Assembly (NCBI GenBank): GCA_041659505.1
Contig: JBAZYF010000003.1
Location: forward strand, 150,026 to 214,025
Length of the DNA: 64,000 bases
Origin: Parcubacteria group bacterium
Lineage (GTDB): Bacteria; Patescibacteriota; Minisyncoccia; Moranbacterales; UBA2206
Direction of reading: 5' to 3'
The translations under genes and the position numbers were made by a program. Every line of letters begins with the position of its first letter. Positions within the stretch are counted from its first letter, which is position 1. Of this stretch, positions 18,885 through 46,155 are shown in pieces. The notes under the pieces were generated by a model, which saw nothing but the letters and a program-made list of their open reading frames with translations, had not been told where the DNA came from and ran no database searches.

Positions 18885-18889
18885 AGATT

Positions 18890-24751: not shown

Positions 24752-25234
24752 TTAACCAATGAATGAAACTCCTAAGATCAAATAAATTAAACCAAAAACC
24801 CAAGGAATCAGCAGCTCAATATGAGAAAATGGATAATATAATTTTTCTTTTTTCCCCTCCCCTAAAATCTTCCATTCATAATCATACAATGCCAATGGTA
24901 AATTTTGCTCTATTTCATGGATAACTTTAAATTTACCAGAGTTTAACTGTCTATAGGCTCTAAGTAAGAACCAAAAAATAACGCAAATAACCAACCCGAG
25001 TAATGCCAGAACCATTTTTATCCAATTAAGCTTTTCTATCAGCTTAAGTTGAAAAGACAACCCAAGCACAGATATAAGAACGGTGTTGATGGTTAAGAAG
25101 AAATTATTGGCATTCTGCCTTCTGTCACTAATTCTTTCGGCGCTTTCAACATACATTTTATATTGATCAAAATAATGAGCATAATAATTCTCCCCGTATT
25201 CTGGTGCAGACTTATTTAGAAGCTTTTTATCCAT
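24752..25234 (-). CDS. Multi-TM small protein, candidate membrane effector (SLATT-like, tentative)
   Basis: 160 aa with a 50-aa cytoplasmic N-terminus carrying the conserved-looking RISDRRQNANNFF stretch, then 2-3 TM helices. It starts 7 nt after the TIR-like gene. Confidence 0.4.
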   Translation of the reverse strand: MDKKLLNKSAPEYGENYYAHYFDQYKMYVESAERISDRRQNANNFFLTINTVLISVLGLSFQLKLIEKLNWIKMVLALLGLVICVIFWFLLRAYRQLNSGKFKVIHEIEQNLPLALYDYEWKILGEGKKEKLYYPFSHIELLIPWVFGLIYLILGVSFIG

Positions 25235-25241
25235 ACCCTTT

Positions 25242-25643
25242 TTAATATTTATTAACTAGATTTTTTACATTTTCCCATGTCCAATCATAGTACCCTACTA
25301 ATCCTTCTGGCCTAGGGCAACTCTTACCAGGAAAACCTTTCAACCCAACAACAGGAACACAGGACTCTCTCGCCATTGCTATTTCAGCTAGCACTCCATT
25401 GCAAGCATGCGTTCTTTCCCCAACCATAACAATAACCAGGTCACATCTCTTTATTTTAGACAAACATTTTTCTTTCCACTCACCTTGACTCCATGGCTCT
25501 TTCACAGACCAATCTTCCATATCAAATGGTGTGCCATTATTTTTACATTGACCGATAAGGGAATCCCTGAGAAATTGATCATTATCAAAATCAAAGCTAA
25601 TAAATACGCGCTTTTTTTGTTGGTAGTAATTTCTATAATCCAT
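25242..25643 (-). CDS. TIR-like domain protein (DUF1863/ThsB-like)
   Basis: 133 aa opening with RVFISFDFDNDQFLRDSLI, matching the TIR-like DUF1863 N-terminal strand-loop motif, plus a later CDLVIVMVGERT strand. Confidence 0.55.
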   Translation of the reverse strand: MDYRNYYQQKKRVFISFDFDNDQFLRDSLIGQCKNNGTPFDMEDWSVKEPWSQGEWKEKCLSKIKRCDLVIVMVGERTHACNGVLAEIAMARESCVPVVGLKGFPGKSCPRPEGLVGYYDWTWENVKNLVNKY

Positions 25644-25674
25644 ATCCTTTTATTATAAAAATTGAAATTAGTTA

Positions 25675-27531
25675 TTATTTAATTAAACTCTTAAAATATT
25701 CCTTTGTTTCTTTATCTGTAAAATATACATAGCAACCTTTCATGCCTCTAGTCATTAATGTTCTGTAAGTATTTTTGATTATTGACCTGATTTTTTCTTT
25801 CGCCAAAGCTTCATCTTTTTTGAGTAACGTCTTGTATCCTTTAATTGAAGCATCCGTTTTGGCTCTTTTCGATGGGTCAACCAAAACGACTCCGTCTCTT
25901 ACAATCAAATCATCTCCCACGATTACGCCAATATAATCAACCTCCAGGCCTTGGCAAGTATGAATACACCCGGCTTCATTTACAGAATTTTTCGCAATGA
26001 TCCAAAGATTTCCGTCAGAACCAAGATTCCATTGCATCTTAAAGTCATACTCTGGAATGTTAATATCATATAACTTTGAATTTCTTCTGCTAATCCAATC
26101 CCAACAATACCCTGCAACAATTCTAGCTTTGTTGTTTGCTTTATTTTTCTCAACTATGACTTTGCGTAGCTCCTCAGGAGAATCCATGACCTTAAAATCA
26201 AAATCGTCGTCATCCAGAATAACATTTGCCGTTTCTCTGACTTGCAAAGCATTATCTAGCCACGAGAGATATCCGTCCGAACCATTACAACGAAATTGCG
26301 AGCTAAGATCGCTTTCAAAAACATTCGCTCCTAATTTTTTGGCCCATTTTTTAATCTCGTCTTTCTCTCCAATATCATCAAAATGGATCTTTTGATTTTC
26401 ATCAATAAAAAATACTGAGAATTTTGAAGCATTAATTATCTCCTTAATTTGATTTTCTCCCATATTCTTGAACATTCCAGATTTGCTATTGAGGCGATGG
26501 GCTTCATCAACAATTAAAGCTCCAAAGATATTTTTCTTCGCATTATAAAATGATCCTGATCCAGAAAATAGATTTGATATTTCTGTTTTTTTCAAAGTTC
26601 CTACTAATTTACTTTCGTAAACAGTTCTTGGCGCAGAATTTTTTGAGACATACTGAGCAAATAGGCCATTCTTAATAAGCTCGACCATGAGATTTATTGC
26701 TACAACCGACTTTCCCGTTCCTGGACCACCTTCGACGATAAAGACATTCTTGCTTTGATCTGTAGATTTAAGAGCTAAATATTTTGCCTTTTCAAATACA
26801 ACTTTTTGGTCGTCTACCATTACAAATTCACTGTTTCCCAAAAGCATTAGAGATAAGCTGTCTGCCAAGCATTTTGATGGCTTTATTATTCCACTTTCAA
26901 TCTGAAACATTACCTTGCCCTTATCTCCATATTTTACAAATTTCTTGATAAACTCTCTCAGTTTTAATGTCTCTTTCCTCAAAAAAACAGGCGCTCTTTT
27001 TATATGCTCAGCATAAAACTCATTCCTAATTGCCCCATCGTCTATGTAATTATGTAAATATGCACATGGCATTAATGTTATTTCCTCCTTGGTAATAGCT
27101 TCGTTAAAATTATCTAAAAGTGCTGCATATGACCAGGCTTGGTATGCAGGGTGGCTAACTTCGCGCATTCCTCCGCCGACGAATGTTGAAATTATTCCAT
27201 CCATTTCGGTAATTTCCGCTTTTTCCCATTGCTTCAACTCTACAATCACTGCGTGATCTTTTCTGTCATTATTTTGACCAGTTAAAATAAAATCCACTCG
27301 CTTTGATGTTTGTGGAATCTGGTATTCTATCATGACGCCGCAATCACTTGGAATATCCTCGTCTTGAAGAATATTTTCCATGTACATCATAGAATTCTTC
27401 CAGGCATTCATTTCGCTAATTGTGGTTTTTCTTTTTAGCTTTTTCTGAAAAATATCATATATCGCAACTTCGATATTGTTAGTGACAACATCCTGAGAAA
27501 AACCTTGCTTTGTGGATTGATAAACAATCAT
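25675..27531 (-). CDS. DUF2075-family Schlafen-like ATPase (N-terminal PD-(D/E)xK-like region plus P-loop NTPase/helicase-like domain)
   Basis: 618 aa with Walker A GGPGTGKS, Walker B LIVDEAH, and an N-terminal D...ELKQWE nuclease-like motif. The architecture is typical of defence-island DUF2075 proteins. Confidence 0.6.
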   Translation of the reverse strand: MIVYQSTKQGFSQDVVTNNIEVAIYDIFQKKLKRKTTISEMNAWKNSMMYMENILQDEDIPSDCGVMIEYQIPQTSKRVDFILTGQNNDRKDHAVIVELKQWEKAEITEMDGIISTFVGGGMREVSHPAYQAWSYAALLDNFNEAITKEEITLMPCAYLHNYIDDGAIRNEFYAEHIKRAPVFLRKETLKLREFIKKFVKYGDKGKVMFQIESGIIKPSKCLADSLSLMLLGNSEFVMVDDQKVVFEKAKYLALKSTDQSKNVFIVEGGPGTGKSVVAINLMVELIKNGLFAQYVSKNSAPRTVYESKLVGTLKKTEISNLFSGSGSFYNAKKNIFGALIVDEAHRLNSKSGMFKNMGENQIKEIINASKFSVFFIDENQKIHFDDIGEKDEIKKWAKKLGANVFESDLSSQFRCNGSDGYLSWLDNALQVRETANVILDDDDFDFKVMDSPEELRKVIVEKNKANNKARIVAGYCWDWISRRNSKLYDINIPEYDFKMQWNLGSDGNLWIIAKNSVNEAGCIHTCQGLEVDYIGVIVGDDLIVRDGVVLVDPSKRAKTDASIKGYKTLLKKDEALAKEKIRSIIKNTYRTLMTRGMKGCYVYFTDKETKEYFKSLIK

Positions 27532-27534
27532 AAT

Positions 27535-27882
27535 CTAGAGTTTATTGTATTTAGTATGCCTGCCTTTGGCCTTTTCGATTGGATATTTTTCTTCGTTTTT
27601 TGTTTGCTTTTTGTCCAGCGCTTTCAAAACATCTATTTCTAAATCATGACTCATTAGTAAAACCCAATATAAAACATCGGCCAATTCCTCGCCGATTTCT
27701 TCTTTCGCCTTTTTTGCATACTTCTTCATTTCACTTTCATTCTTCCATTGAAAATGCTCCATTACCTCTGCTGCTTCCAAAACCAAAGACAAGGCTAAAT
27801 CTTTTGGATTATGAAATTGCTTCCAATCTCGCGCGTCACGAGAAGCGATTATTCGTTTTGTCAGATCATCTACTTTTGACAT
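27535..27882 (-). CDS. MazG-like nucleotide pyrophosphohydrolase
   Basis: 115 aa with the all-alpha NTP-PPase signature (LALSLVLEAAEVMEHFQW...EELADVLYWVLLMSHDLEIDV...EKYP). Confidence 0.7.
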   Translation of the reverse strand: MSKVDDLTKRIIASRDARDWKQFHNPKDLALSLVLEAAEVMEHFQWKNESEMKKYAKKAKEEIGEELADVLYWVLLMSHDLEIDVLKALDKKQTKNEEKYPIEKAKGRHTKYNKL

Positions 27883-27885
27883 AAT

Positions 27886-28062
27886 TTACTTTTTCCAATC
27901 CTCAATAATTAATTTACTCCCCGATTTTTTGACTATCACTTTTTGTTTCTCCCGCCAACCGAGTGCGCGGAATAATTCGATGGGGATGGTGACGGCGATG
28001 GATTGCTTGCCGACCTTGGTCAGCTTGCGGATATTTTTGTCTTCCATTTTTCTGACTGGCAT
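27886..28062 (-). CDS. AbrB/MazE/SpoVT-family swapped-hairpin DNA-binding protein (MazE-like antitoxin)
   Basis: Unlisted 58-aa ORF: MPVRKMEDKNIRKLTKVGKQSIAVTIPIELFRALGWREKQKVIVKKSGSKLIIEDWKK. It ends 3 nt before the MazG-like start. Confidence 0.6.
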   Translation of the reverse strand: MPVRKMEDKNIRKLTKVGKQSIAVTIPIELFRALGWREKQKVIVKKSGSKLIIEDWKK

Positions 28063-28209
28063 ATATTTGTAGGTAAATTATTTAACCATACGGATTTGCG
28101 CTTCTTAATAAGCTCCTACACTGGATTCTCTGCCTACGCCGAGGCTTCGGCAGGCAGGCCGCCGGAGTTTATGCTTGTGAAGCGGGTGCGGGAATGAATG
28201 ACACGGGGT

Positions 28210-28229
28210 GTACGTAATTAATTACGTAC
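28210..28229. promoter_or_regulatory. Perfect 20-bp palindrome GTACGTAATTAATTACGTAC
   Basis: Exact reverse-complement symmetry, about 150 nt upstream of the MazE-like operon. It shares a 15-mer with the site at 23431-23445. Confidence 0.5.
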
Positions 28230-28233
28230 CACT

Positions 28234-28353
28234 TTAGGCTGCCGCAAACTCTCCCAACTCCTCAAAAACCCCATCGGTGAAATCGGTTGGTTTGAATTTT
28301 AAAATTGCCAGCGCGTTTTTGCGGCAATATTCGAGTTCGGAAAAATTTTTCAT
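28234..28353 (-). pseudogene. Duplicated 3'-end fragment of the HD-domain gene found at 31976..32485
   Basis: About 90% nucleotide identity over roughly 90 nt with 31988-32076. It encodes MKNFSELEYCRKNALAILKFKPTDFTDGVFEELGEFAAA, matching the C-terminus ...LDYCRKNALAIFKFKPTDFTDGVFEELGGFLIG. Confidence 0.7.
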
Positions 28354-28492
28354 TTTTCTAAAAATAAAGTTTTAAACTATTTTAATACCCAAAAAATCCT
28401 ATCGCCCCTGATATCCAGCCTGTCACTTTATCATTTTACGCCTTTTTGGCTTTTTAGGCTAATTCTAGCAGCTGAAACTCATTGGTCAGCTC

Positions 28493-29926
28493 TTACATTA
28501 AAAAATAATAATCCAATGGCACATTTACAATTTTTTCTTCCTGATCAATGACTAAGGGACTACTAGAAAATACGATTCCGTAATCAGAATTAATCCGACT
28601 CATGCTATGCAAAATTTGCTTCCTATCTTTTTTCCCCAGCCCCACTTCAATCATAATCTGCTTCTTATTGCCAATTTGCAAAATAAAGTCAGCTCCGCTT
28701 TGAGCGCTATCATAACGGAATGCTCCCCCGCCTCGAAGGATAAACTCTCGATACAGATGGGCCCCGACAGAATCTTCTAGTAGCTTTCCCTTTCTGGTCA
28801 TAAAAGTACCTTCTTGCCCGGAAATAGAGAGAAAAGACATCCGAATCGCTGAAGACATAAATAAATATTTCGCTGGTTTTTTTGCGACTGACATATTGGA
28901 TCCATAAGCTGAAACCTTCACAAGCAATTCCGCCTTTTCCAGTGCGTCTAATAGACCGAGCACTGTCAAACGATCAATCTGTAATATTTTTTCTAAAGTA
29001 TTCAGGCTTGTCGTATCATTTTCTGCAAGAATAAAAAGCAGCCGCTTGGCTTGCGTTAGCGTTTTTATGTCGAAACTACCCATCATCGGCAAGTCTTTTT
29101 TTATAATCCCATCCAAAAGCAATGATATTGCATCATAAATTGCCGATTCGTTTGGCAATTGCAAAGTGAATGGCAATGAACCTGACGTCAGAAATCTATC
29201 AACATCTCGCCTATCCACCTTACTCCAATATTCATTCACCGATCTTTGCAAATTACCCAACTTAGCATAAACTTCCCTAGCATCAGCTGAAAAGTATATC
29301 GCCTCTCTGATATTGTTTTTTAATTGCTTTGTTGGATAAACCTTATTTCCAACCATCTCAAATTCCGCAAAACACATCGGGGTCATTCGTTCAAAAATAG
29401 CCCGACCCCTTGAGATATCCGGAGTAGTTTGCAGAACGACTGCCGAAGATCCTGTGCAACAAAAAAATATCCTTGCTGTCTTATCGTGCAAGATCTTAAG
29501 TGTTTTTGCCCACTTGGGATCACTCTGTACTTCATCGAAAAAAATAACAACATCTTCCTGTAGGCTTTCAAGATCAACCTTCAGGATTTCTTCATAAGCT
29601 TGCATTATCTCAGAAATACCTACATTAAATAAATTCCTCGCTTCATCGATGGATAAAAATAATATTCTAAGTTTTTTTCTTTTGAGAATAATATCATTAC
29701 AAATCTGTGCCATTAGGGTTGTTTTTCCGACGCCGCGAAGCCCAGGGATTATAATCAACCTATTGTTTGATTTTTTAGCTAAAAAATCAAACAGATATTT
29801 CTGTATTTTTACAAATAAAAAACGACTAGGGAGCTGCTCCCCTTTTATATCATGCGTATATTTATGGATTCTATCCTCTGTTGTTCTTATTTGCTTTTGC
29901 AAATATTGGATTAGCTCCTGCTGCAT
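28493..29926 (-). CDS. AAA-family ATPase with a C-terminal DUF4143 domain
   Basis: Walker A GLRGVGKTTL and Walker B VIFFDEVQ; 477 aa. Confidence 0.7.
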   Translation of the reverse strand: MQQELIQYLQKQIRTTEDRIHKYTHDIKGEQLPSRFLFVKIQKYLFDFLAKKSNNRLIIIPGLRGVGKTTLMAQICNDIILKRKKLRILFLSIDEARNLFNVGISEIMQAYEEILKVDLESLQEDVVIFFDEVQSDPKWAKTLKILHDKTARIFFCCTGSSAVVLQTTPDISRGRAIFERMTPMCFAEFEMVGNKVYPTKQLKNNIREAIYFSADAREVYAKLGNLQRSVNEYWSKVDRRDVDRFLTSGSLPFTLQLPNESAIYDAISLLLDGIIKKDLPMMGSFDIKTLTQAKRLLFILAENDTTSLNTLEKILQIDRLTVLGLLDALEKAELLVKVSAYGSNMSVAKKPAKYLFMSSAIRMSFLSISGQEGTFMTRKGKLLEDSVGAHLYREFILRGGGAFRYDSAQSGADFILQIGNKKQIMIEVGLGKKDRKQILHSMSRINSDYGIVFSSSPLVIDQEEKIVNVPLDYYFLM

Positions 29927-29937
29927 ATATATTAAAC

Positions 29938-29983
29938 TATACTAGTAAGTTATGTTACTAGTATATTATATTAGACTAGTAAT
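29938..29983. promoter_or_regulatory. Operator-like inverted repeat ATACTAGTAA-gttatg-TTACTAGTAT plus a third half-site ACTAGTAATG
   Basis: 10-bp perfect arms at 29938-29947 and 29954-29963, immediately upstream of the AAA ATPase start. Confidence 0.45.
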
Positions 29984-30057
29984 GTCAAACAGTGTTTTTT
30001 TGGCTTAAATATAGTGTTTTTATCCTAATTCTCTTGTTGGATATCTCCTATTCAACC

Positions 30058-30729
30058 CTAGACGAGCTGTTTTTCTTTTAAGCTTGCATAGGCACTTTTT
30101 GTGATTATCACATGATCCAACACCTCAATCCCTAAAATCTTCCCCGCCTCCTTGAGGCGCTTGGTCACTTCCAAGTCATCTTCCGACGGTTCGGCGTTAC
30201 CGGAAGGATGATTGTGCGCGAGAATAACTGACGCCGCCAACTGATCAATGGCCGACTTGAAAACTTCGCGCGGATGAATGAGGCTGGCGTTGAGCGTGCC
30301 GATGGAAACGGTTTCTTTGTGAATCAGTTGACTGCGCGCGTTGAGATAGAGCGCGACAAAATGTTCTTTTTTCATGGTGCGCAATTCTTGCAATTGCGCC
30401 ACGACATCTTTGGCGGAAATAATCATCGGAAGGTTGTTGTCCTCCACTTCCAAGGCGCGCTTGGTCAACTCAAATGCCGCTAAAAAAAGACACGCCTTTG
30501 CCGGACCGATACCTTTAATTTTTGATAGACTTTTATAATCAAGTTCTAATAGTTTTTTCTTGGGAAATTTAGCCAGTATTCCACTGGAAATCTTCAAAAC
30601 ATTTTTGCCTTTTATCCCCGTTCGTAGTAAAATCGCCATCAACTCACTATCGCGAAGATTTTCCACTCCTCTTTCCCGCAACTTCTCTCTTGGCATTTCA
30701 TGTTTTGGCAAGTCTTTGATTTTTGGCAT
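30058..30729 (-). CDS. radC: RadC-family JAB/MPN domain protein
   Basis: JAMM motif HNHPSG, a helix-hairpin-helix region, and 223 aa from the MPKIKDL start. Confidence 0.8.
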   Translation of the reverse strand: MPKIKDLPKHEMPREKLRERGVENLRDSELMAILLRTGIKGKNVLKISSGILAKFPKKKLLELDYKSLSKIKGIGPAKACLFLAAFELTKRALEVEDNNLPMIISAKDVVAQLQELRTMKKEHFVALYLNARSQLIHKETVSIGTLNASLIHPREVFKSAIDQLAASVILAHNHPSGNAEPSEDDLEVTKRLKEAGKILGIEVLDHVIITKSAYASLKEKQLV

Positions 30730-30922
30730 AATTACTTTTTCCAAATATAATTACTCTTTCAAAAACCCCATCGGTAATTCAATCCTACTCCAATTCCCCT
30801 CTTTCGTAAAGAAAAGTTCGCCAAAACAGGCGCATTTTTTATTAAGCTCGAAAAATGGCCAGAACGAAATTGCTTGGGAAAAATTTGCCCATGATCAGCA
30901 TTTCCAAAAATCACACCTCAAG

Positions 30923-32485: not shown

Positions 32486-32524
32486 AATTATTTTATCTAT
32501 CTTGGCAATTTATTATCCAACTTG

Positions 32525-32756
32525 GCACACTGCGAGACTGGATTCCCGCCTGCGCGGGAATGACATGAAGGGTTGAGATCCTGAATCAAGTTCAGGATGA
32601 CAATGAGAGCAGGAGGACAAGGATGTAAGTAATTTCCGCCCAAGGCGGATCAGCCTAGGGCTGAAATTGCGTACATCTCTATTCTACCCCCATTTCCCCG
32701 CTTTGGCAAAGAAAAAAGGGATCATCCGTAATGCGAATGACCCCCTTTTTGTGAAC
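32525..32756 (+). ncRNA. Candidate structured non-coding RNA (four consecutive hairpins, then an intrinsic terminator)
   Basis: Hairpins GGATTCCCGC/GCGGGAAT, ATCCTGAA/TTCAGGAT, TCCGCC/GGCGGA and CAGCC/GGCTG at 32540-32662, then AAAAAAGGGATCAT...ATGACCCCCTTTTT at 32718-32756. No convincing ORF is present. Confidence 0.25.
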
Positions 32757-32791: not shown

Positions 32792-33232
32792 TCATTTCTT
32801 GGGGATAGCTTTGGCAAAAAATTCCGCCAATTCCTCTATGTACCTATCCACATGGAGTATCGCCCTTGCCTCATCCGAGACACGTTCCAAAAAACACCTG
32901 TCATTTCCTCCGGAAAAATGCACAGCGCAACGACAGAACCTGATTAAATCTTCGGCGGAGCCGATACTAAAAAGATCGGCCGGATGAACCAAGAAATATA
33001 TATTGCTGTGTTTTACTTTTGGCGCTGGATCATGCTTAGCACCACACGGAAACTTGAGTGCCATCAGTGAGCCTAACAATAATAAGGGAACTTTCTCCCC
33101 CGCTAATGTCAGCTTGACACCTCGATAATCTATTCCTGCTTCTTTTGACCAAAACTCAGGATCAATCACGACCCCAAAGGTTCCATGATTTGGCCAAAAT
33201 ACAATTTCTCCAAGTTCGGGTTTTCTTCTCAC
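32792..33232 (-). CDS. Hypothetical protein X1 (paralog of the C-terminal region of 36706..37308)
   Basis: 146 aa. Shared motifs are PCGAKHDP vs PCGYNYSP and FCRCAVHFSGGND vs FLCRNASFGSLD. Confidence 0.5.
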   Translation of the reverse strand: MRRKPELGEIVFWPNHGTFGVVIDPEFWSKEAGIDYRGVKLTLAGEKVPLLLLGSLMALKFPCGAKHDPAPKVKHSNIYFLVHPADLFSIGSAEDLIRFCRCAVHFSGGNDRCFLERVSDEARAILHVDRYIEELAEFFAKAIPKK

Positions 33233-33244
33233 ATTTTCCTCCTT

Positions 33245-34084
33245 TCAACCAATGAGTACATCCGCCATTGAATAGACAGCACCAGGCTGGATATTTTTGG
33301 CGAGAAAGTTGATGGCGTCCAACGTTCCCAGCGCATATACCTCCCTGCCGTTCACATTATGCGTAAACTGAAAAAAAACACTTCCATCAGGAGAACGCAA
33401 GGAGTAGGTATGCCATCCGTGTGCAGAGAGCGCCTTTTCGGGAACTCCCATCGCTCTTTGTTTTTTGGGATTACGCACCTTTTCAATCTGACTTGGGAAG
33501 AACGGAATTCCCAGAGAATTAAAATAGCCTGCCATTGCCTTGGCCGTACCACTGGTGTCTACTTTGCCGTTTTGATGGCTCTCTTCGATTCTCAGCGTAT
33601 ATCCCCTAAAAACACCCGGGAAATTTTTGGTCGCAAACTCCATCATGGCCAAGAAAGTGACAACTTCCTTGGCCATATTGGGTGCAATGACAGCACAAGT
33701 CTGTGACGCCTTGACCATTTCCACAAGTTTTTTCTGATCCCCACCCGTCGTCTCCATAATAAACGGGATTTTGTGGAAACAATAGAATTTAGCGTTCTCG
33801 ATGACCGCCGAGGGATGAGAGAAATCGACAACAATGAAAGAACGATCCTTGTACCATGTCATCCCTTTCACAAGCTGACTTCTTTCACCAGGCGTGAATA
33901 AATTAATGGTAAATCCGTCATCTACAGTAAACGAGAACGCCGAGATTTCAAGGCCAGTCAAGGAAGATTCGTACAGCTTAAACGGGTATCTAATCTTGTC
34001 TGCCTTCACGATTTGATTGCATACCTCGCCTGCCATTTTTCCAGGCAAGCCATTTACCATTACAACGATTTGGTCACTATTCAT
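33245..34084 (-). CDS. Dihydrodipicolinate reductase (DapB)-like oxidoreductase
   Basis: N-terminal VVMVNGLPGKMAG Rossmann-like region and ESHQNGKVDTSGTAKA, matching the DapB E-HH-x-K-DAPSGTA motif. Confidence 0.55.
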   Translation of the reverse strand: MNSDQIVVMVNGLPGKMAGEVCNQIVKADKIRYPFKLYESSLTGLEISAFSFTVDDGFTINLFTPGERSQLVKGMTWYKDRSFIVVDFSHPSAVIENAKFYCFHKIPFIMETTGGDQKKLVEMVKASQTCAVIAPNMAKEVVTFLAMMEFATKNFPGVFRGYTLRIEESHQNGKVDTSGTAKAMAGYFNSLGIPFFPSQIEKVRNPKKQRAMGVPEKALSAHGWHTYSLRSPDGSVFFQFTHNVNGREVYALGTLDAINFLAKNIQPGAVYSMADVLIG

Positions 34085-34185
34085 TGATTCTTCTCCTTTC
34101 GAAAGTTTAATTGTTTGTTTTATGATTAGTATGGTCAGGATATACCAAGAATAGTCTGAAAATACCTATTCTGTTTTTAAAAAGC

Positions 34186-34235
34186 TATGAAATTAATTTG
34201 TAGCATAGATAGGCGCGATAGTCAATTGAAATCTT
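34186..34235 (-). promoter_or_regulatory. Duplicated promoter/leader element TTGACT-N17-TACAAAT + TTAATTTCATAGC (copy 1)
   Basis: Minus-strand reading GATTTCAATTGACTATCGCGCCTATCTATGCTACAAATTAATTTCATAGC. A near-identical copy lies at 38134-38184. Confidence 0.5.
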
Positions 34236-34271
34236 ATCCCTAAAACCATAATTATAAAAAAATTAAAAGGC

Positions 34272-35126
34272 CTATTTTTTCAACTTTTTTTGATTTTTTT
34301 GCGTTAGAAAATTATTTCTTGTGACAACTTTTTTGCCTGTTCGTTGTTCGATATCCTGCCTGGTTCTGCCGGCCACCGCTCCGCCTTCTTGGGCGTCACC
34401 TCGTAACTTTCCCAAGCCCTGCGAATTTCTGGTAGTGGTTATTTCGGTCGTTGTCGCTTCGCCCAGCATAGTGAGAATCAGTTCTAATTCTGACATATGA
34501 TCCCTGGGATTGTCCGGATTACTGAGTGATTTAAATTCCTTAATCTGCTTGGCATTCATCTCGAACGCTCCTTTGTAAATCTCATTTGTGAGGATAGCAA
34601 AATCAAATCCTTCTCTTGCTCCTCGCCCTTGCCACTCGTCAGTTAGCGTATTTCGCACATTGATGCCTCGCATCCGCTTTGCGATCCAATCGTCATTATA
34701 GCCCTTCTGTTCATAAATTTTCTTGGCTCGCACAATCGCTCTTTCCGGATCTTGAATTTCTTCAATACGCTCTTGTCCGATTCGCGCCAGCCACAGCTTG
34801 AACGGCTCGGCTTTGGGAGATGGAATTGATTGGATGATTCGGAATATTCCTTGCAAATCGCCACAATTCAGCTTCTGTACACCACCCTTTGTCTCTACGG
34901 AAAGGGGGGTGACAATTTGTCCCCACCCTTTGCCAAGTTCAATATCTCTTAGTCTCATTTTCTTGATATAATCAGAAACATTTGACGTTTGAGTCAGCGC
35001 CTCCACTATATCATTTATAACAAAATACCATTGCTCATCGTGCCAGACGCGACGCACTTCTTTTTGCTCGAAGATTGTTGGATGAGTTTCATTTTCTTGT
35101 TTTTTCTTTTTCATATTTTTGCTCAA
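34272..35126 (-). CDS. DinD/Bro-N-like DNA-damage-inducible protein D family protein
   Basis: Similar to E. coli DinD (FDFAILTNEIYKGAFEMNAKQIKEFK...HMSELELILTMLGEATTTEI). Confidence 0.6.
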   Translation of the reverse strand: MSKNMKKKKQENETHPTIFEQKEVRRVWHDEQWYFVINDIVEALTQTSNVSDYIKKMRLRDIELGKGWGQIVTPLSVETKGGVQKLNCGDLQGIFRIIQSIPSPKAEPFKLWLARIGQERIEEIQDPERAIVRAKKIYEQKGYNDDWIAKRMRGINVRNTLTDEWQGRGAREGFDFAILTNEIYKGAFEMNAKQIKEFKSLSNPDNPRDHMSELELILTMLGEATTTEITTTRNSQGLGKLRGDAQEGGAVAGRTRQDIEQRTGKKVVTRNNFLTQKNQKKLKK

Positions 35127-35136
35127 TTATTTTTAT

Positions 35137-35159
35137 TATAATGATATTGTATCATTATA
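35137..35159. promoter_or_regulatory. Inverted-repeat operator TATAATGATA-ttg-TATCATTATA overlapping the -10 element
   Basis: 10-bp perfect arms 11-33 nt upstream of the DinD-like start. The half-site resembles the one upstream of the KilA-N gene. Confidence 0.45.
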
Positions 35160-35206
35160 TCAAATATTTGGCAACTTTACGCAAACGCTTTATCTTTTTC
35201 CGCTCT

Positions 35207-36559
35207 CTATTTTTTCACCCCAAGCATTTTGTCCATCACTTTTTTGGCATAGAGAAGAGAAATGACGACGGCGGTCCAGTTGATGGCGAAAATCCCCCAC
35301 CAGACGCCGTCGAGGTGCCAGTTGAGCACGCGTGTAAAGAGGTAGAAAAAAATGATCGGCGCGAAGGCCTGGCGATAGATGCCGATCCAGATGGCAAAGT
35401 TTGGTTTTTTAAGGCCTTGCAAAGTGGACACGACGAGATAAAGGATCATATAGGCCCAATAGATCCAGATCGAGATGTGAAGATAGTGGACGCCGATTTT
35501 CACTACCTCCGCATCATGGGTGAAAAGCGCGATGAACGGTGTGGCAAAAAGATAGGCCACAAGCATTCCGACAATGACAACGAAAAAGCCATAGCGCATC
35601 ACGGTGCGATAGATTTGACGACAACGCTCAAAATTTCCTGCGCCGTTGCTTTGGGCGATCAAAGTGAGCGCGGCTGTGGTGAGGCCGATCGAGGGAAGCA
35701 TGGCGATCTGATCCATCCGGGTCATGATGCCATAGGCGGCCACCGCCGCTTTGCCAAACGGGGCGACGAAGTAAGTAATGATGAAAATTCCCACCGCGAT
35801 AGTGAGCATATTGAGACTGGCGGGAAAACCTTGTGCGAATAGATTTTTAAAATATTTGAGTTTAGGAACAAGCAACGGCAGGCATTCTTTGCAAAGAATG
35901 CCTCTTTGAGTGAGCACCCAACCCATATAGACCACCCCGATAATTTGGATGACAATCGTGGCCCAAGCGACGCCAGCGAGTCCCATCGCCGGCAGACCGA
36001 GCCAGCCAAACATAAAGACGGGATCCAAAAAACAATTGAGAAAAAATCCGACGATGAGAAAATTACGAAAAGTCGCGGTGTCGCCGCGCGCGCTCAAAAT
36101 TCCGCTCATCACAAAGGTCAGGCTGAAAAAAACTGAGCCGAGAAGAATGATGTTGATGTAGGTTGTCGCGATCTGGAGATATTTTCCTTGGGCGCCCAGG
36201 AGCATGAAAAGATATGGCGCGACCCAAAATCCGATCGCAGTAAGAAAGAGGCTGACAATGACCGAGAAGCTCAAGGCTTGCGAGGCATAGACGCGCGCCT
36301 CCTCTTCGTCTTTCGCTCCGATCGCATTGGCAATGAGCGCCGAGGCACCGGTCGAAATGCCCACGCCCAAGGCAATGATGACAAAAAAGACCGGAAAAGA
36401 AAGTGACAGTGCCGCCAACGCATCGGTAGAAACGAGACCGCCGAAATAGGTATCGACGGCGTTATACATCGTGTTGAAAAAAAATCCTACGCTGGCGGGA
36501 ATGGCGATCAGGCGGATCTGCTTTCCAATATCCCCGCTCGTCAAATCTTGGTCTTGCAT
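35207..36559 (-). CDS. MATE-family multidrug/oligosaccharidyl-lipid efflux transporter
   Basis: 450 aa with 12 predicted TM helices and a NorM-like N-terminus (IPASVGFFFNTMYNAVDTYFGG). Confidence 0.8.
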   Translation of the reverse strand: MQDQDLTSGDIGKQIRLIAIPASVGFFFNTMYNAVDTYFGGLVSTDALAALSLSFPVFFVIIALGVGISTGASALIANAIGAKDEEEARVYASQALSFSVIVSLFLTAIGFWVAPYLFMLLGAQGKYLQIATTYINIILLGSVFFSLTFVMSGILSARGDTATFRNFLIVGFFLNCFLDPVFMFGWLGLPAMGLAGVAWATIVIQIIGVVYMGWVLTQRGILCKECLPLLVPKLKYFKNLFAQGFPASLNMLTIAVGIFIITYFVAPFGKAAVAAYGIMTRMDQIAMLPSIGLTTAALTLIAQSNGAGNFERCRQIYRTVMRYGFFVVIVGMLVAYLFATPFIALFTHDAEVVKIGVHYLHISIWIYWAYMILYLVVSTLQGLKKPNFAIWIGIYRQAFAPIIFFYLFTRVLNWHLDGVWWGIFAINWTAVVISLLYAKKVMDKMLGVKK

Positions 36560-36705
36560 AATTTTAGCCTTAATAAAATTACATCTTTATTTTAGTGAAA
36601 ATTCGGGGTTTAGTAAACCAGCAAGCTCAATTATGGATAAAAAAATAGAGGGATTTGATTTTGAATTACTCCAATAATCAAATCCCTCTTCTTTGAGCAG
36701 CTTTG

Positions 36706-37308
36706 CTACTCCAATTCCATCGCTGCTCGTTGCCAGGCCAGATCCAACGATCCGAAGCTAGCATTGCGACAAAGGAACGAAACTGCTTTTTTGATTGATC
36801 CCTTTTGATCTACTCTTAAGTTCAAGTATTCCTTCAGTCGTCCTTCGGCCGACCAAAGACTTGGGAGATACCACAGTTCCCAAAATCGTGCGTCTTCTCC
36901 CCTTCTTGATCTCAGGCAGATAAAGCCATAACTCGTCAATTTCTCCGCTTCGATCTCATAATTTTCCGGGGAATAGTTGTATCCACAAGGAGCATGGATG
37001 ATGATTGATGGCATGATATATTTTTCCATCTCGACAGGAAACAATTGCAGTTGCTGATTACCCGGAGAGGCGCGGCGCCAGAAAGGCAACATGTCCGTAT
37101 CTTCGGTGGGACCGGGCACATCCTCCCTTCGGCGAATGACCTCTAAGCGACCATCCGTCACGGTTACCCAGAAATGGTTACGAACCATGCATCTGATGTT
37201 TTCTTGTTCTTCCTCGGTCAAATTACCCAAAGCGAGTTCTCCTTTATCACTGGAATGAACTCTTATTCCGGGTAATTTTTTCGGCTTGTTTTCGTCAAAA
37301 TCCCACAT
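36706..37308 (-). CDS. Hypothetical protein X2 (C-terminal region paralogous to 32792..33232)
   Basis: 200 aa. See the motif matches listed for X1. Confidence 0.5.
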   Translation of the reverse strand: MWDFDENKPKKLPGIRVHSSDKGELALGNLTEEEQENIRCMVRNHFWVTVTDGRLEVIRRREDVPGPTEDTDMLPFWRRASPGNQQLQLFPVEMEKYIMPSIIIHAPCGYNYSPENYEIEAEKLTSYGFICLRSRRGEDARFWELWYLPSLWSAEGRLKEYLNLRVDQKGSIKKAVSFLCRNASFGSLDLAWQRAAMELE

Positions 37309-37346
37309 AGATTTCTCCTTTCAGTTGTAGTCACACAAAGTTACTA

Positions 37347-38060
37347 TTAACGGTTGAGATATTTTTTGACATAAATAACTTCTGCCAGAGCAGCGGCCAT
37401 ATCTTCACAGACACCTTCGAGAATAATCGGTATATTCCCTTTCTCTGGCACAGCGTTCAATATCTCGAGCTGTCTTGTAAGAAAAAGTGGCTCGTGATAT
37501 TCAACGAAACCGCTCAGATGGATTTCGCTGATCCGGTCGTAAAACTTTTCAATCATCAGCTGTGCCAGCCGCATCAGCGGGTCAATACTGAAGCAGTGAT
37601 TGAGATCGAGCACAAAACCAAAATTGTTAATTTCAAACAGCTGCTCCAAATTGGAGACTGTTCCATAACTTTTCTTCCTCCAATCAGAGTTTTCCACGCT
37701 GATCGGCAGAGAGAGATTTTTCAAAACTGACCAATCGTCAACGGTGTCCGGATGGATCACCACACAATCGAAATTGAACCGCTCGTGCGCTCTCGTAATA
37801 TGGCCCAAGACACTCATTGTTTCAAAATTTAGCTTGTACCTCAGATCTGTCGGAGCGTGTATTGAGACATGCGCGAAATGTTTCCGGATATCGACAGCAT
37901 CGAGATCGGCCAATCCGCATATATCCTGTTTGCGAATACAACCAATTTCAATCGCACCGCCACCTAATCGTTTGTGGATTTTGATGATGTCAGACGAAAC
38001 TGCCGGGATGCTTTTGAAAAGCGTGCCGGTCGTCATACCGATCAACCTATCATTGCCCAT
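37347..38060 (-). CDS. Xylose-isomerase-like TIM-barrel (sugar phosphate isomerase/epimerase / AP endonuclease 2 fold) protein
   Basis: Motifs VVIHPDT, SVENSDW and LDLNHCF; 237 aa. Confidence 0.5.
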   Translation of the reverse strand: MGNDRLIGMTTGTLFKSIPAVSSDIIKIHKRLGGGAIEIGCIRKQDICGLADLDAVDIRKHFAHVSIHAPTDLRYKLNFETMSVLGHITRAHERFNFDCVVIHPDTVDDWSVLKNLSLPISVENSDWRKKSYGTVSNLEQLFEINNFGFVLDLNHCFSIDPLMRLAQLMIEKFYDRISEIHLSGFVEYHEPLFLTRQLEILNAVPEKGNIPIILEGVCEDMAAALAEVIYVKKYLNR

Positions 38061-38133
38061 ATTCTCCCTCCCTTTTTCTTTGTATTATTAATTTCTGCTA
38101 AAAATAACCAAGAAGCTTATTCGGTTTTTAAGT

Positions 38134-38184
38134 TGCTATGAAGTTAATTTGTAGCATAAACCAAGGCGATAGTCAATCAGAAAC
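38134..38184 (-). promoter_or_regulatory. Duplicated promoter/leader element (copy 2) TTGACT-N17-TACAAAT + TTAACTTCATAGC
   Basis: Minus-strand reading AGTTTCTGATTGACTATCGCCTTGGTTTATGCTACAAATTAACTTCATAGC. It lies 74-124 nt upstream of the 38060 start. Confidence 0.5.
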
Positions 38185-38450
38185 TAATCATCCATCCCGA
38201 TCTTGAAACTCATCGCCAAAAAAGTGCCGGTGGCCACGCCAGCGGCATAGATAATGATGGCCAGCGTGCTCCGCTGAGCATCTAGGTGCGAGAGGATATT
38301 ATAGATCACGAGCATCTGGACCGTCGTGCAAAGGAAGGAAAGCAAGACAGCTGGTCGGACTTTGTGTTTGGCGATATAGCGCCAATCAAGCGTCACCAAA
38401 AAATCCTGGAGGATGCCGGCAAAAAAATAGAGGAATAAATAATAGTCCAT
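38184..38450 (-). CDS. Small membrane protein
   Basis: 88 aa from MDYYLFLYFFAGILQDF, with 3 TM helices. The track ORF extends to 38531 and would overlap the upstream gene. Confidence 0.4.
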   Translation of the reverse strand: MDYYLFLYFFAGILQDFLVTLDWRYIAKHKVRPAVLLSFLCTTVQMLVIYNILSHLDAQRSTLAIIIYAAGVATGTFLAMSFKIGMDD

Positions 38451-38478
38451 TTTGATGTTTATTAAAAAGTCAGACTTG

Positions 38479-39369
38479 TTATTCGCGCTGGAAAATTTTC
38501 CCTGCTTCTCCCAATTCATCAATCGCCTCAAAAATAAGACCCATCAATTTGTCATCCTTAAATTTGATCAGATTATTTCGCACCCAAGCAAGCGCTTGGG
38601 CGTGGGAAAATTTCCGACGTCGAACCGCCGCTTCGTATTGATCGAGCGCGATGAGCGCTTTTCCTTGCAATGCGTCCGCGTAATCTTCCAGCAGACCAAT
38701 GACTCTAGCTTCTGATGGAGTCGCGCCCTTATCCTTCGCTAGTCCATAAGGATCGACATCATGGTCGATATGGTGCGATCCAGCGATAATCCGCGTCCGA
38801 CTATCCAAGCCCTGTGGATATTTTTCCAAAATGTCCCGCGTCCAATAAGCATGCTTATCCCAGAAATCCCGCATCGTCGTTTCCTTGTCGATTGTATATT
38901 TTTCTAGCATCCACTGAACATCTTCAATCTGACTAGGCTCAAAGATTTTCATGATTTCATCCTCTAGCAATAATTTTGGATCGCGAATATTTTCACAGGC
39001 AAAAATTTTTATAATCATTTCTTGCTCACCAAGAGTCGCATCGACCGGTCCTGATTTTCCAATGTCATGCAAAATTGCAGCGATCCGCGCACTGGATTTT
39101 TGTTCTGCGGAAAGGCGCAGTGCAGGATTTTGCTCCGAATAGCGATTTTCCAACAATTTAAGAACATTTTCCATCCCCTGTTCAATTTTGCGCGAGTCGT
39201 CATTAAATTTCGATTCCTTTTCGAGGAGTACCAAGCGACCAATTATTTCCTGATGGAGTGATTCATGGAAACCGATCCGCTCCAAGCTCGTCAAGACATT
39301 TTGGCGGCCGACCGACTCCTTCCATTCCTGTTCGCTGGTTTCTTTCATTGCTTCCGGCATTTCAAACAT
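38479..39369 (-). CDS. HD-domain metal-dependent phosphohydrolase
   Basis: AAILHDIGK and IIAGSHHIDHD motifs; 296 aa. Confidence 0.7.
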   Translation of the reverse strand: MFEMPEAMKETSEQEWKESVGRQNVLTSLERIGFHESLHQEIIGRLVLLEKESKFNDDSRKIEQGMENVLKLLENRYSEQNPALRLSAEQKSSARIAAILHDIGKSGPVDATLGEQEMIIKIFACENIRDPKLLLEDEIMKIFEPSQIEDVQWMLEKYTIDKETTMRDFWDKHAYWTRDILEKYPQGLDSRTRIIAGSHHIDHDVDPYGLAKDKGATPSEARVIGLLEDYADALQGKALIALDQYEAAVRRRKFSHAQALAWVRNNLIKFKDDKLMGLIFEAIDELGEAGKIFQRE

Positions 39370-43285: not shown

Positions 43286-45226
43286 TCAAATTTCAATACT
43301 TTTCGCACTGTCGATCCACAGTTTTCCTGTGGCATCGGATGGTGCGCGCCAGTCACCGCGAGGAGAAACAGAGACAGAACCGATCTTGGTCCCATCCGGC
43401 ACTGCGTTGCGCTTGAACTGGGCCGCGAACATCCGCTGGTAGAATTTCACCAACTGATCTTTGATATACTCCACGTCATAGACCCCGGCAAATGCCTGAC
43501 GAGCCAGAAAATTGATTTTTTCCGGTTCGAAGCCGTTACGCAATGAGTGAAACATGAAGAAATCATTCAGATCATATTCCCCGATCAATGCTTCGGTCTG
43601 CTGTCCCGGCAATAATTCCGGTGAAATTGGTGTCGCACAGATATCCTTGATAATCTTGGACGCAATATCGCTGAACATTTCCAGCTTGACGACTTGCTCA
43701 ACCACGAATTTCACCAAAGTCTTGGGAACACCGCAGTTCGGATTATACATCGACATATGGTCGCCGTTATAGGTGCACCAGCCGAGAACTAACTCGGACA
43801 AATCCCCTGTCCCGATCACGAAACCAAGAGACATCAGGATCAATGTACGGATCCTTGCCTGAGAATTCTCACAAGTGAGACAGTTCATACAAGGTTCGTG
43901 TTCAATATCACGGAGCAATTGTAAGGTCAGTTTTTTGATCGGAATTTTCTTGAGCGTGACACCGAACTCCTTGCAAAGCTTGATAGCGTTATTCAGTGTA
44001 CGCTTGCTCGTCCCAAAACCCGGCATCGTCACTGCGATGATGCCGCTACGCGGCCAGCCAATCATATCGAACGCCCTAACTGTGGCAATGAGCGCAAGAG
44101 TCGAATCGAGGCCACCGGAAATTCCGATGACAACCTGGCGATTCAGGACTGACTCCAACGAAGAAAATCTTTTCACCAGACTGGCGATTTGGAGCTGCAA
44201 AATATTCTTGCAACGTTCATCCAACGTCGCCGGATCTTTCGGCACAAACGGATTCGCGTCAAAAACAAACATAGCACTGAGCTTATTCAGATCGAGCGGA
44301 GCAATTTCAGCCCTCACCTGCCGATAAGTCTTGCCATAGACGCTTGTTTCATTGGCAATGGCCTGAGAAAAACTCCCGGACACGCGCCGCTCCCGATTGA
44401 GTCTTTGCACATCAATATCATAGGCAAGCAAGCGCTCATTAAAGAACAGCTCTTGTTTTTCTGCAACGATCGAACCATTGTCAGCGATCAACATATGACC
44501 GCTCCAAACGACATCCGACGTCGATTCTCCTGCGCCACACGACACATAGACATAGGCACACAAACAACGCCCGGATTGATTCTTGACCAGTTCTCGGCGA
44601 TAATCGGACTTGCCAATCAATTCGTTAGACGCAGAGAGATTAAGGATTACCGTCGCCCCCTGGGCTGCCAGATGGGAACTCGGCGGGATCGGCATCCACA
44701 AGTCTTCGCAGATCTCGACACCAAAAGAGAAATCCGGAATAGTTGTCAGAACGACAATATCTGTTCCGATGCTGACTTTCTGCAGACAAAATTCAATCTC
44801 TTTTATGGGAAGCCGGTCGGCCGGAGAAAAATGCCGCAGTTCATAGAATTCCTTGTAATTGGGAATATACGATTTGGGAATGATCGCCAGCACTTTTCCC
44901 GACTGACAGACGACAGCCACATTGAACAGTTGGCCGCCAACCTTGAGCGGTATGCCGAACACGGAAATAAGATCATACTTCTCCGTCGCTTGGACATACC
45001 GCATCGCTTCTACTTCAGCTTCATTCAGTAGTGTGTCCTGCAAAAAAAGATCGCCACAGCTATAGCCTGTCATTCCCAACTCTGGGAAGACAAGCAGCTG
45101 CACATTTCTGCTTATTGCCTGACCTGCCAACCTGATCATATTTTGCACGTTCTTTTTCGGATCAGCAATCTCCACGAGCGGCTTGGCTGCCGCCACGCGG
45201 ACATAACCATAATCATTTTTTTTCAT
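43286..45226 (-). CDS. nadE: Glutamine-dependent NAD+ synthetase (CN-hydrolase domain plus NAD synthetase domain)
   Basis: N-terminal nitrilase-like domain and a C-terminal PP-loop domain with GISGGLDSTLAL; 646 aa. Confidence 0.9.
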   Translation of the reverse strand: MKKNDYGYVRVAAAKPLVEIADPKKNVQNMIRLAGQAISRNVQLLVFPELGMTGYSCGDLFLQDTLLNEAEVEAMRYVQATEKYDLISVFGIPLKVGGQLFNVAVVCQSGKVLAIIPKSYIPNYKEFYELRHFSPADRLPIKEIEFCLQKVSIGTDIVVLTTIPDFSFGVEICEDLWMPIPPSSHLAAQGATVILNLSASNELIGKSDYRRELVKNQSGRCLCAYVYVSCGAGESTSDVVWSGHMLIADNGSIVAEKQELFFNERLLAYDIDVQRLNRERRVSGSFSQAIANETSVYGKTYRQVRAEIAPLDLNKLSAMFVFDANPFVPKDPATLDERCKNILQLQIASLVKRFSSLESVLNRQVVIGISGGLDSTLALIATVRAFDMIGWPRSGIIAVTMPGFGTSKRTLNNAIKLCKEFGVTLKKIPIKKLTLQLLRDIEHEPCMNCLTCENSQARIRTLILMSLGFVIGTGDLSELVLGWCTYNGDHMSMYNPNCGVPKTLVKFVVEQVVKLEMFSDIASKIIKDICATPISPELLPGQQTEALIGEYDLNDFFMFHSLRNGFEPEKINFLARQAFAGVYDVEYIKDQLVKFYQRMFAAQFKRNAVPDGTKIGSVSVSPRGDWRAPSDATGKLWIDSAKSIEI

Positions 45227-45252
45227 TGGTTACTACCTCCTTCATGAGATAT

Positions 45253-46155
45253 TTACAGTAATTTCGCAATGAGCGGTGAAAGCGATAAAACTTCAAAATA
45301 CGGCTCTGATTCAACTTTCGCCACCGTATCAGGACAAGAATCGGTCAACCAAACAAAATCAAACAAATCGGGCGTAAACTTTTTCCATGAATCGTGAACA
45401 AACACGCCATGCGTCGCATATGCACTGATCTTGTAGGCACCTGCCAGCATTAGGACTTTCTGGCATTCGATCAGTGTACCACCAGAAAGGATAAGATCAT
45501 CGACCATGATGATATATTTGCCTCGCGGATCACCTTCTTTGATAGTCACAACTTTTGTTCCGTCCGGCATTTTCACCTTATTACAAACAATCTTAGGATA
45601 TTCAGGAAACATCGCACCGAATCTCTTATGCGCTCCATCATCAGGAAACGCGATTGCCACATTCGGGATATATTTGATGCGCCCTTTGAGCAACGGAATT
45701 GCACTGACCAACTCAGGCAATACTCGCGTGTCATCAAAATAAAACTGGGTCTGCAGGGCATGGATATCGAAAATTGTGATGATCGGCGACCTTGGTATGG
45801 TGGATAACATCCGTGCCAAAGTTTTTGCCGTCGCAATTTCCCCATACTCTGTCACTCGTTCCATCGTGCCGACAGGATAGAAAGGCACGATGACTCTAAA
45901 CGAATGCACCAGATGCATCGGCATCGCATAGAGAATCGCGAATTGCTCGAACAACGATTCGGGCTTTTCAAAGTTTGCAAAGAAAATAACGTCTTGGTTT
46001 CTCACCTGATCCGCATCCTCGATGAATATTTTCGGCCAACCATCGCCAAAACTCTGCCAAGATATCCCACCTATTGCTACACCAACCATCTCAGCAACTT
46101 TCTCCGCCATTTCCGTAATCGTATGATGGGCAAAAATAATTTTTCTAGTCGCCAT
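45253..46155 (-). CDS. prs: Ribose-phosphate pyrophosphokinase (PRPP synthetase)-family protein
   Basis: FDIHALQTQFYFD (cf. Prs DLHAxQIQGFFD) and the PRPP-binding loop IIMVDDLILSGGT. Confidence 0.75.
   Translation of the reverse strand: MATRKIIFAHHTITEMAEKVAEMVGVAIGGISWQSFGDGWPKIFIEDADQVRNQDVIFFANFEKPESLFEQFAILYAMPMHLVHSFRVIVPFYPVGTMERVTEYGEIATAKTLARMLSTIPRSPIITIFDIHALQTQFYFDDTRVLPELVSAIPLLKGRIKYIPNVAIAFPDDGAHKRFGAMFPEYPKIVCNKVKMPDGTKVVTIKEGDPRGKYIIMVDDLILSGGTLIECQKVLMLAGAYKISAYATHGVFVHDSWKKFTPDLFDFVWLTDSCPDTVAKVESEPYFEVLSLSPLIAKLL

Follow-up and report, generated by a model that had tools for sequence, protein, structure and literature searches.

A promoter-leader element shared by unrelated accessory cassettes in a Parcubacteria-group genome: a putative regulon tag

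Two operons with different genes in them begin with almost the same sequence in a metagenome-assembled genome (MAG) of the Parcubacteria group. Do they encode two versions of one system, or are unrelated genes placed under one control? The window analyzed here is the whole 64-kb stretch of this MAG. On its minus strand, a dapB-like gene is followed by a gene for a protein termed X1 (NCBI hypothetical protein WC848_05180), and a gene for a TIM-barrel enzyme (TIM) is followed by one for a protein termed X2 (WC848_05200); a copy of a promoter-leader element lies upstream of each pair. The original prediction for this region was that X1 and X2 are paralogues and that a conserved X protein partners interchangeable enzymes under a common control, exerted by the duplicated promoter and leader. 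The four open reading frames (ORFs) on which it was based were all found, and the two gene pairs are indeed tight bicistronic operons that end at intrinsic terminators (Table 1), with a Shine-Dalgarno site ahead of each second gene: X1 starts with GTG 12 nt past the dapB stop codon and has its own ribosome binding site, AAGGAGG, and X2 lies 38 nt past the TIM stop codon behind AAAGGAG. We hold with moderate confidence that the two operons carry a lineage-specific regulon tag, that is, a promoter and a segment from about +1 to +35 recognized by its sequence, which stands before shuffled accessory cassettes and would co-regulate them.

The element in the window and its copies in relatives

The top repeat family of the region was a 72-nt direct repeat on the minus strand (34167-34238 and 38118-38189) with 78% identity. 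The 42-nt pattern TTGACTATCGC-N7-TATGCTACAAATTAAYTTCATAGC matched the 64 kb twice, at 34184-34225 and 38135-38176 (both minus strand), compared to 0.00 matches expected from shuffled sequences. The predicted duplication of the upstream element is thus real. The likeness of copy A (dapB-X1) and copy B (TIM-X2) is not limited to generic -35 and -10 boxes and reaches into the first ~35 bases that would be transcribed: the part 3' of the -10 region, TTCATAGC-N3-TTAAAAAC-N-GAATA, was found only at these two sites in the window, even when three mismatches were allowed (0 expected), and a search with the sequence model R1 revealed no further or diverged copies in the window. The distance to the start codon, given before as about 100 nt, applies to dapB (~100 nt) but not to TIM (~75 nt).

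Both copies have the same architecture. In copy A, the -35 hexamer TTGACT (34220-34225) is followed after a 17-nt spacer by the extended -10 region TGC-TACAAA (34197-34205) and the leader CATAGC-TTT-TTAAAAAC-A-GAATAGGT; in copy B, TTGACT (38171-38176) and TGC-TACAAA (38148-38156) precede the leader CATAGC-AAC-TTAAAAAC-C-GAATAAGC. Since the -10 hexamer is TACAAA preceded by TG, we infer that transcription starts at the conserved CA of CAyAG, at ~34188-34190 in copy A and ~38139-38141 in copy B, and with the start so placed the conserved block would span +1 to +35. The promoter half is best read as a sigma-70-like promoter of the extended -10 type. In 14 of 14 copies (described below), the -35 sequence is TTGACT or TTGACC, near the TTGACA of sigma-70 promoters, and lies 17 nt from TACAAA, within the spacing of 17 ± 1 nt; the -10 region, TGcTACAAA, has TG at -15/-14 and A at -11, with A in place of T at -7. 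Because of this A, a consensus promoter scanner did not list the element. TGCTACAAT is also present at another promoter-like site in the window, where TTGAC-N15-TGCTACAAT at 2566-2595 (plus strand) represents the same general promoter type, followed by unrelated sequence and no such leader. Since the promoter type exists without the leader, the leader is the specific part of the element.

Additional copies were searched for by a fuzzy search of the locus of the closest relative (L007, TIM 78% identical) and by scanning GTDB genomes and JGI metagenomes with degenerate patterns. L007 has three copies within 2.3 kb, and after removal of duplicates 14 distinct copies from the window and related Moraniibacteriota/Parcubacteria contigs were obtained, all in the same orientation and 50 to 130 nt upstream of a start codon. 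Nine different cassettes stand behind the element, with a membrane protein gene in L016 as a tenth (Table 1). As the units in L004, L007, L011 and L013 differ from those in the window, X1, X2, dapB and TIM are each seen without their window partner. At the more distant X2 and TIM homologue loci L001, L006 and L009, whose sequences were read, the element is absent and the contexts are unrelated; it was also not found in the IMG/VR viral contigs searched.

Two side observations concern these copies. In L015 (1130-1460) promoter and leader are joined straight to the membrane-protein and Zn-ribbon genes, and in L007 (7910-8970) TIM stands between them, which is a clean presence/absence of one cassette gene behind the element. 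The sole extra candidate from the R1 search was a diverged and weakly matching leader half, CATAG-N4-TTAAAAACAAAATA, at L029:2919-2961 (13.6 bits, E = 0.005), upstream of a gene of unknown function (198 aa) that lies directly 3' of an X2 homologue in a more distant relative.

Table 1. Features of the window and units driven by the element
Feature	Position in window	Strand	Basis	Loci
Element copy A (promoter and conserved leader of dapB-X1)	34146..34238	-	Repeat search, 74.7 bits with model R1	
Element copy B (promoter and conserved leader of TIM-X2)	38100..38189	-	Repeat search, 66.5 bits with model R1	
Plant-type 4-hydroxy-tetrahydrodipicolinate reductase (DapB) homologue, 279 aa	33245..34084	-	Pfam, TIGR02130, PDB	
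X1, orphan-like protein, 146 aa	32792..33232	-	ORF, AlphaFold model	
TIM-barrel metal enzyme, endonuclease IV/AP_endonuc_2/DUF692 superfamily, 237 aa	37347..38060	-	Homologues, profile vs PDB	
X2, 200 aa	36706..37308	-	Homologues, AlphaFold model	
Intrinsic terminator, end of dapB-X1 operon	32712..32750	-	Hairpin and U-run, z = -4.0	
Intrinsic terminator, end of TIM-X2 operon	36639..36689	-	19-bp hairpin and U-run, z = -6.3	
Intervening genes without element	34272..36559	-	Bro-N protein (34272-35126) and MatE transporter (35207-36559)	
Unit: TIM-X2				Window, L012
Unit: TIM, then 83-aa membrane protein and 87-aa Zn-ribbon protein				L007
Unit: membrane protein and Zn-ribbon protein, no TIM				L015
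Unit: 84-aa membrane protein, then X1 relative				L011
Unit: dapB-X1				Window, L017
Unit: dapB alone				L013
Unit: X2 alone				L004/L005
Unit: 367-aa secreted protein				L007, L018
Unit: 142- to 177-aa coiled-coil protein				L007, L012, L013, L014, L018
Unit: membrane protein				L016

In the alignment of the 14 copies, TTGAC, TGCTACAAAT and AATA are invariant, together with scattered single positions. The blocks TTGAC, TATGCTACAAAT, TTrAAAA and AATAGGT are invariant or almost so: TTrAAAA varies at the A/G position only, and conservation exceeds 90% at the first G of AGGT as well as at the TT of the T-run. Pairwise identity across the copies was 90% for the -35 TTGAC and 82% for the AATAGGTyTTTT block, compared to 51% for the 13-nt promoter spacer. 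The scan patterns had fixed TGCTACAAA, CAnAG, TTAAAAA and AAT; TTGAC (-35) and the AGGTyTTTT block were in no search pattern. As a neutral background we used the window and L012, between which identity is 51 to 56% at third codon positions of the orthologous TIM and X2 genes and 54 to 55% in flanking noncoding DNA; the background is therefore saturated. In the operon of L011 the element scores 74 bits, although its X1 protein is only 37% identical to that of the window. Since the blocks are kept while the neutral background is saturated and X1 has diverged this far, the pattern is what a functional promoter with a functional block near the start would leave, and not what a recent copy would. 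The common control of the original prediction is thus borne out as far as the element goes, which is real, extends beyond the generic boxes and has been kept in relatives in spite of saturated neutral divergence; the regulator is putative.

Regulon tag or structured RNA

In the mechanism that we propose, the tag consists of a -35 TTGACy, a 17-nt spacer and the extended -10 region TGcTACAAA, fused to the segment CAyAGy-N3-TTrAAAAy-N-rAATAGGTyTTTT at ~+1 to +35. A narrow Moraniibacteriota/Parcubacteria clade sets it before at least nine small accessory cassettes, which belong to one island and are shuffled between strains. RNA polymerase would use the generic promoter half, and one dedicated factor, whose existence and direction of action we infer, would read +1 to +35, either as a DNA operator just past the start (repressor type) or at the 5' end of the mRNA, so that all tagged units would switch together. 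X1 and X2 are on this reading unrelated passengers, and so are dapB and the TIM-barrel enzyme.

This arrangement has much in common with known regulon operator and promoter modules such as LexA SOS boxes and phage middle/late promoters: in these, too, one sequence stands at a fixed position and orientation before unrelated units, and the promoter boxes and a block near the start are kept while the spacer may vary. The tag differs in that its block lies at ~+1 to +35 and has no clear dyad symmetry, that it is confined to a narrow clade of the Candidate Phyla Radiation (CPR) and to one hypervariable island, and that its regulator is putative. A regulon tag is therefore a known kind of thing. The present instance is undescribed: the element has no Rfam match, and a literature search for Patescibacteria promoter motifs found no papers. 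In an informal comparison, none of the operator consensus sequences of CodY, CtsR, LexA, CIRCE and Fur was convincingly like the leader.

Several points weigh against a regulon tag. No transcription factor gene is consistently adjacent to the tagged units. At -7, TACAAA does not have the T that is usual in a -10 hexamer. The conservation of TGCTACAAA, CAnAG, TTAAAAA and AAT is partly ascertained, most copies having been found via patterns that fix this core. The clade is narrow, and recent recombinational spread could mimic some of the conservation. Finally, the 11 type-A leaders share a 6-bp hairpin, in which one change is compensatory, so that a role as RNA is possible.

If the leader acted as RNA, it would be a cis-regulatory element (riboswitch-like, a protein-binding site or a stabilizing 5' hairpin) in which a hairpin, GAAUAG...CUAUUC or AAAAAyC/GGUUUUU, controls mRNA stability or translation. 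The conserved segment indeed lies 3' of the presumed start, and the GAAUAG/CUAUUC hairpin was recovered by RNAalifold in 11 of 11 type-A leaders. Its arms are GAATAG (34166-34171) and CTATTC (34149-34154) in copy A and GAATAA (38117-38122) and TTATTT (38102-38107) in copy B, where both bases of one pair differ from copy A and another pair is now G-U; in some copies the second, mutually exclusive hairpin AAAAAyC/GGUUUUU is possible. However, this 6-bp hairpin was the only consensus structure, with just -3.5 kcal/mol and a covariation term of 0. Neither leader of the window was more stable than its shuffled controls (z = +0.21 and +1.47), and the hairpin is missing from the minimum-energy structure of the one before TIM. 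Rfam gave 0 matches in the window at the gathering score and only chance-level matches in E-value mode, the best of which was preQ1-II with 18.3 bits versus a 47-bit cutoff. A stable, conserved fold with covariation support, as expected of a structured RNA, was thus not found in the leaders. Moreover, the copies in front of the coiled-coil genes keep TTAAAAAynrAATAGGT, but the 3' arm of the hairpin is replaced by other sequence. Because these copies keep the 5' sequence without the 3' arm, we favor recognition of the primary sequence, probably as an operator just past the start or as a single-stranded site at the 5' end of the RNA; a structured RNA is less likely, and we regard a cis-regulatory RNA as unlikely overall.

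The leaders of the coiled-coil genes have a structure of their own. In L007 (7130-7224), L012 (1690-1778) and L013 (1880-1950, minus strand), a stable conserved hairpin, CUUCC..CUUGAGCGUGGUGCUUGAGG..GGAAG, follows 3' of the shared element; RNAfold z-scores of the whole leaders were -1.0 (L007), -2.5 (L013) and -3.2 (L012), and the stem sequence differs between loci. The folding suggests a candidate for a separate cis-regulatory RNA.

The proteins encoded behind the element

The central claim of the original prediction, a conserved X protein with interchangeable enzymes, requires that X1 and X2 be related. BLASTP of X1 against X2 gave E = 5.4 over 30 residues, and a 19-member profile of the X2 family aligned with X1 with an hhalign probability of 0.08%. 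In the AlphaFold model of X1 (predicted local distance difference test [pLDDT] score, 74.6; predicted template modeling score, 0.74), five short beta strands lie in the N-terminal two-thirds and the C-terminal part is formed by three helices; in that of X2 (pLDDT, 70.9), a small beta domain at the N terminus is joined to an alpha/beta domain at the C terminus, so that the order of secondary structures differs. No fold match to the X1 model was found in the PDB (best E = 0.28), and the X2 model had no significant match in the PDB and BFVD. X1 matched nothing in Pfam, NCBIfam, PADLOC and PHROGs, and X2 nothing in Pfam, PADLOC and PHROGs. The motifs said to be shared, PCG(A/Y) and F(C/L)CR, are present in the window proteins but are conserved within neither family: PCG is private to the window proteins, being LCGY in most X2 relatives and PCS, SPHL or absent in X1 relatives, and FCRC is missing from the most distant X1 relative. 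By sequence, profile, motif conservation and predicted fold, X1 and X2 were rejected as one protein family, and with the pairings not conserved in relatives either, the original idea has to be corrected: there is no conserved X partner protein.

The two proteins also differ in their distribution. X1 is a near-orphan, with 5 matches among 1.84 billion representatives. The X2 family, which has an invariant GFxCLRSRR motif as its hallmark, has ~20 relatives in CPR metagenomes and nine in contigs classed as viral by IMG/VR (L019 to L027); four of these nine contigs are 184 to 388 kb long, and their G+C contents range from 43% to 67%. X2 homologues also adjoin SRAP or integrase genes (L001, L006). 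In L019 to L027, the X2 genes lie amid densely packed small ORFs of unknown function. In L028, which holds the most distant X1 relative (P0127), another X1-like ORF (186 aa; 2132-2692) was seen by eye a few genes downstream, amid small unannotated genes, which suggests local paralogues of the X1 family.

The dapB-like protein contains both DapB_N (PF01113) and DapB_C (PF05173). It scored 274.7 bits with the plant-type model TIGR02130, just under the equivalog cutoff of 294.55, and aligned end to end with the plant-type 4-hydroxy-tetrahydrodipicolinate (HTPA) reductases 5u5n, 7t34 and 5ua0 in the PDB (E = 2e-66 to 2e-60), an alignment in which the catalytic and substrate motif ESHQxxKxDxSGTA is intact. 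It thus shares with plant-type DapB the full-length alignment, both domains and the motif, and appears to be an ordinary-looking biosynthetic reductase; it differs in the score below the cutoff, the location in an accessory island and the orphan partner gene X1. No other dap genes were found among the annotated ORFs of the 64-kb window, to which this search was confined.

TIM has 102 homologues, mostly from CPR and DPANN, many of which match PF01261 and a few PF05114. Eight residues are invariant in the family (E38, H68, H103, E123, N124, H155, H181 and E215), and its invariant His, Glu and Asp residues are presumably metal ligands. The family profile matched endonuclease IV (5zhz, E = 1e-5) and a DUF692 protein (3bww, E = 0.008) in the PDB, and TIM itself matched the PADLOC hidden Markov model (HMM) PDC-M70B with E = 5e-27. 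The profile match, residues of the metal-ligand type and the PDC-M70B match thus connect it with endonuclease IV, AP_endonuc_2 (PF01261), DUF692 (PF05114) and PDC-M70. In contrast to these, the window protein is under the Pfam threshold (no match at E ≤ 0.1, and hence none to PF01261 at the gathering score) and has no second PDC-M70 component nearby: only the B component was matched, and X2 and the neighboring proteins gave no match to the PDC-M70 models. This candidate defense system is unvalidated, and its composition was not found in the literature searched. Relatives of TIM were sought in the IMG/VR viral contigs and not found.

Could TIM-X2 and dapB-X1 still be two versions of one modular two-component system, possibly for conflict or defense, with a conserved X and exchangeable enzymes? 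In favor, each is a tight bicistronic operon and the promoter is shared, the surrounding island encodes Mrr, an SLFN-like helicase, AAA_14, Fic/RhuM, SocA, KilA-N and Bro-N proteins (with restriction-modification genes in relatives), TIM matches PDC-M70B, and some X2 homologues are on contigs classed as viral by IMG/VR. Nevertheless, a modular system is very improbable: the paralogy on which it would rest is already largely refuted, neither X protein is matched by a defense or phage family, dapB looks biosynthetic, and the pairings vary, with X2 alone, X1 with a membrane protein, dapB without X1 and TIM without X2. A defense or conflict role of individual cassettes is possible, the evidence being their context and the one match to a candidate HMM.

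Cassettes in a hypervariable island

The tagged units are located in a hypervariable island adjoining tauE. In the window, the region between DUF4349 (17 kb) and tauE (42 kb) holds them together with genes of the mobile-element and defense type. In L007, DUF4349 and tauE are adjacent, with the tagged units directly next to them and restriction-modification genes beyond; in L012, MazE-like, NYN and restriction-modification genes come after TIM-X2. Several different cassette arrangements were present in the single metagenome sample Ga0172379.

Like integron cassette arrays, the island is one hot spot in which short, strain-variable cassettes are gained, lost and recombined (L015, for example, is without TIM). 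Integron cassettes, however, are promoterless and carry a 3' attC, whereas here each unit has its own 5' promoter. Neither an IntI-type integrase nor attC-like sites were observed beside the tagged units, the integrase having been checked for in the window, L007 and L012. An integron cassette array was therefore rejected.

That the element is merely a good promoter, with copies alike through recent duplication or recombinational spread along with the cassettes, we consider very improbable: the copies within one genome do have spacer and upstream sequence in common, unlike orthologous copies, and cassettes have clearly been reshuffled between strains in the same sample, but spacer and flanks are down to ~50 to 55% identity while the specific blocks are invariant in 14 of 14 copies, which counts against recent copying since a recent copy or conversion tract would bring the spacer along, and the leader half alone occurs, in a weak and diverged form, before an unrelated gene in a more distant relative. 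The greater likeness of spacers and upstream flanks within a genome than between orthologous positions (the L007 copies before the 367-aa protein and TIM; the two window copies, which share ATCGC) does point to copying or conversion between copies.

A regulon tag could be more than a switch. We put forward, as a speculation that we think rather doubtful, that in episymbiotic CPR bacteria it also anchors recombination in a promoter-first cassette system, in which homologous exchange would take place at the tag (~80 nt) and at P2, another repeated promoter. Diverse accessory genes, some of which, such as X2, may be viral in origin, would then be plugged in under one inducible switch and would form a strain-variable, co-induced arsenal for interaction with host or phage. 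To our knowledge, almost nothing is known on transcriptional control in CPR bacteria. A sharply defined, searchable tag could define a regulon in these uncultured organisms, could help to fish for its regulator and helps to ask what the strain-variable cassettes do, whose products include secreted and membrane proteins, a plant-type DapB, the endonuclease IV-like TIM and a family, X2, with members in contigs classed as viral.

On the minus strand, the order of the region is DUF5698 (38184-38531), element copy B, TIM, X2, terminator, MatE, Bro-N, element copy A, dapB-like gene, X1 and terminator; MatE and Bro-N each have a promoter-like site of their own. The Bro-N protein (34272-35126, minus strand) matched the PADLOC single-gene defense candidate PDC-S13 with E = 5e-104, and another Bro-N gene lies at the edge of L007. 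The X1 terminator is followed 3' by an orphan promoter, hairpin-rich repeats and then the gene of an HD_4 protein. The orphan promoter, at 32681-32709 (minus strand) right after the terminator, is a copy of P2, TTGCCAAAGCGGGGAAATGGGGGTAGAAT. In relatives, P2 lies directly upstream of the DUF5698 gene, which in the window is 5.5 kb away, beside element copy B. The orphaned P2 after the X1 terminator and the place of DUF5698 beside copy B point to an insertion or a rearrangement of the TIM-to-X1 block in the window.

The short hairpin-forming repeats between the orphan promoter and the HD_4 gene (32490-32680, minus strand; for example, GTCATTCCCGCGCAGGCGGGAATCCAG and GTCATCCTGAACTTGATTCAGGATC) look like a miniature repeat element; GTCATTCCCGCGCAGGCGGGAATCCAG is single copy in the window, and a similar stretch of repeats is found in L012 at ~3430-3560. 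The part of the window at 17200-30750 encodes KilA-N, RhuM/Fic, a helix-turn-helix and SocA (Panacea) protein, Mrr with a Zn ribbon, an SLFN-group-3-like helicase, AAA_14/DUF4143 and RadC. On the minus strand at 43286-50768, a cluster for NAD metabolism encodes a glutamine-dependent NAD synthetase, a phosphoribosyl pyrophosphate (PRPP) synthetase, an NAD kinase, two NUDIX-domain proteins and a QRPTase_N-domain protein.

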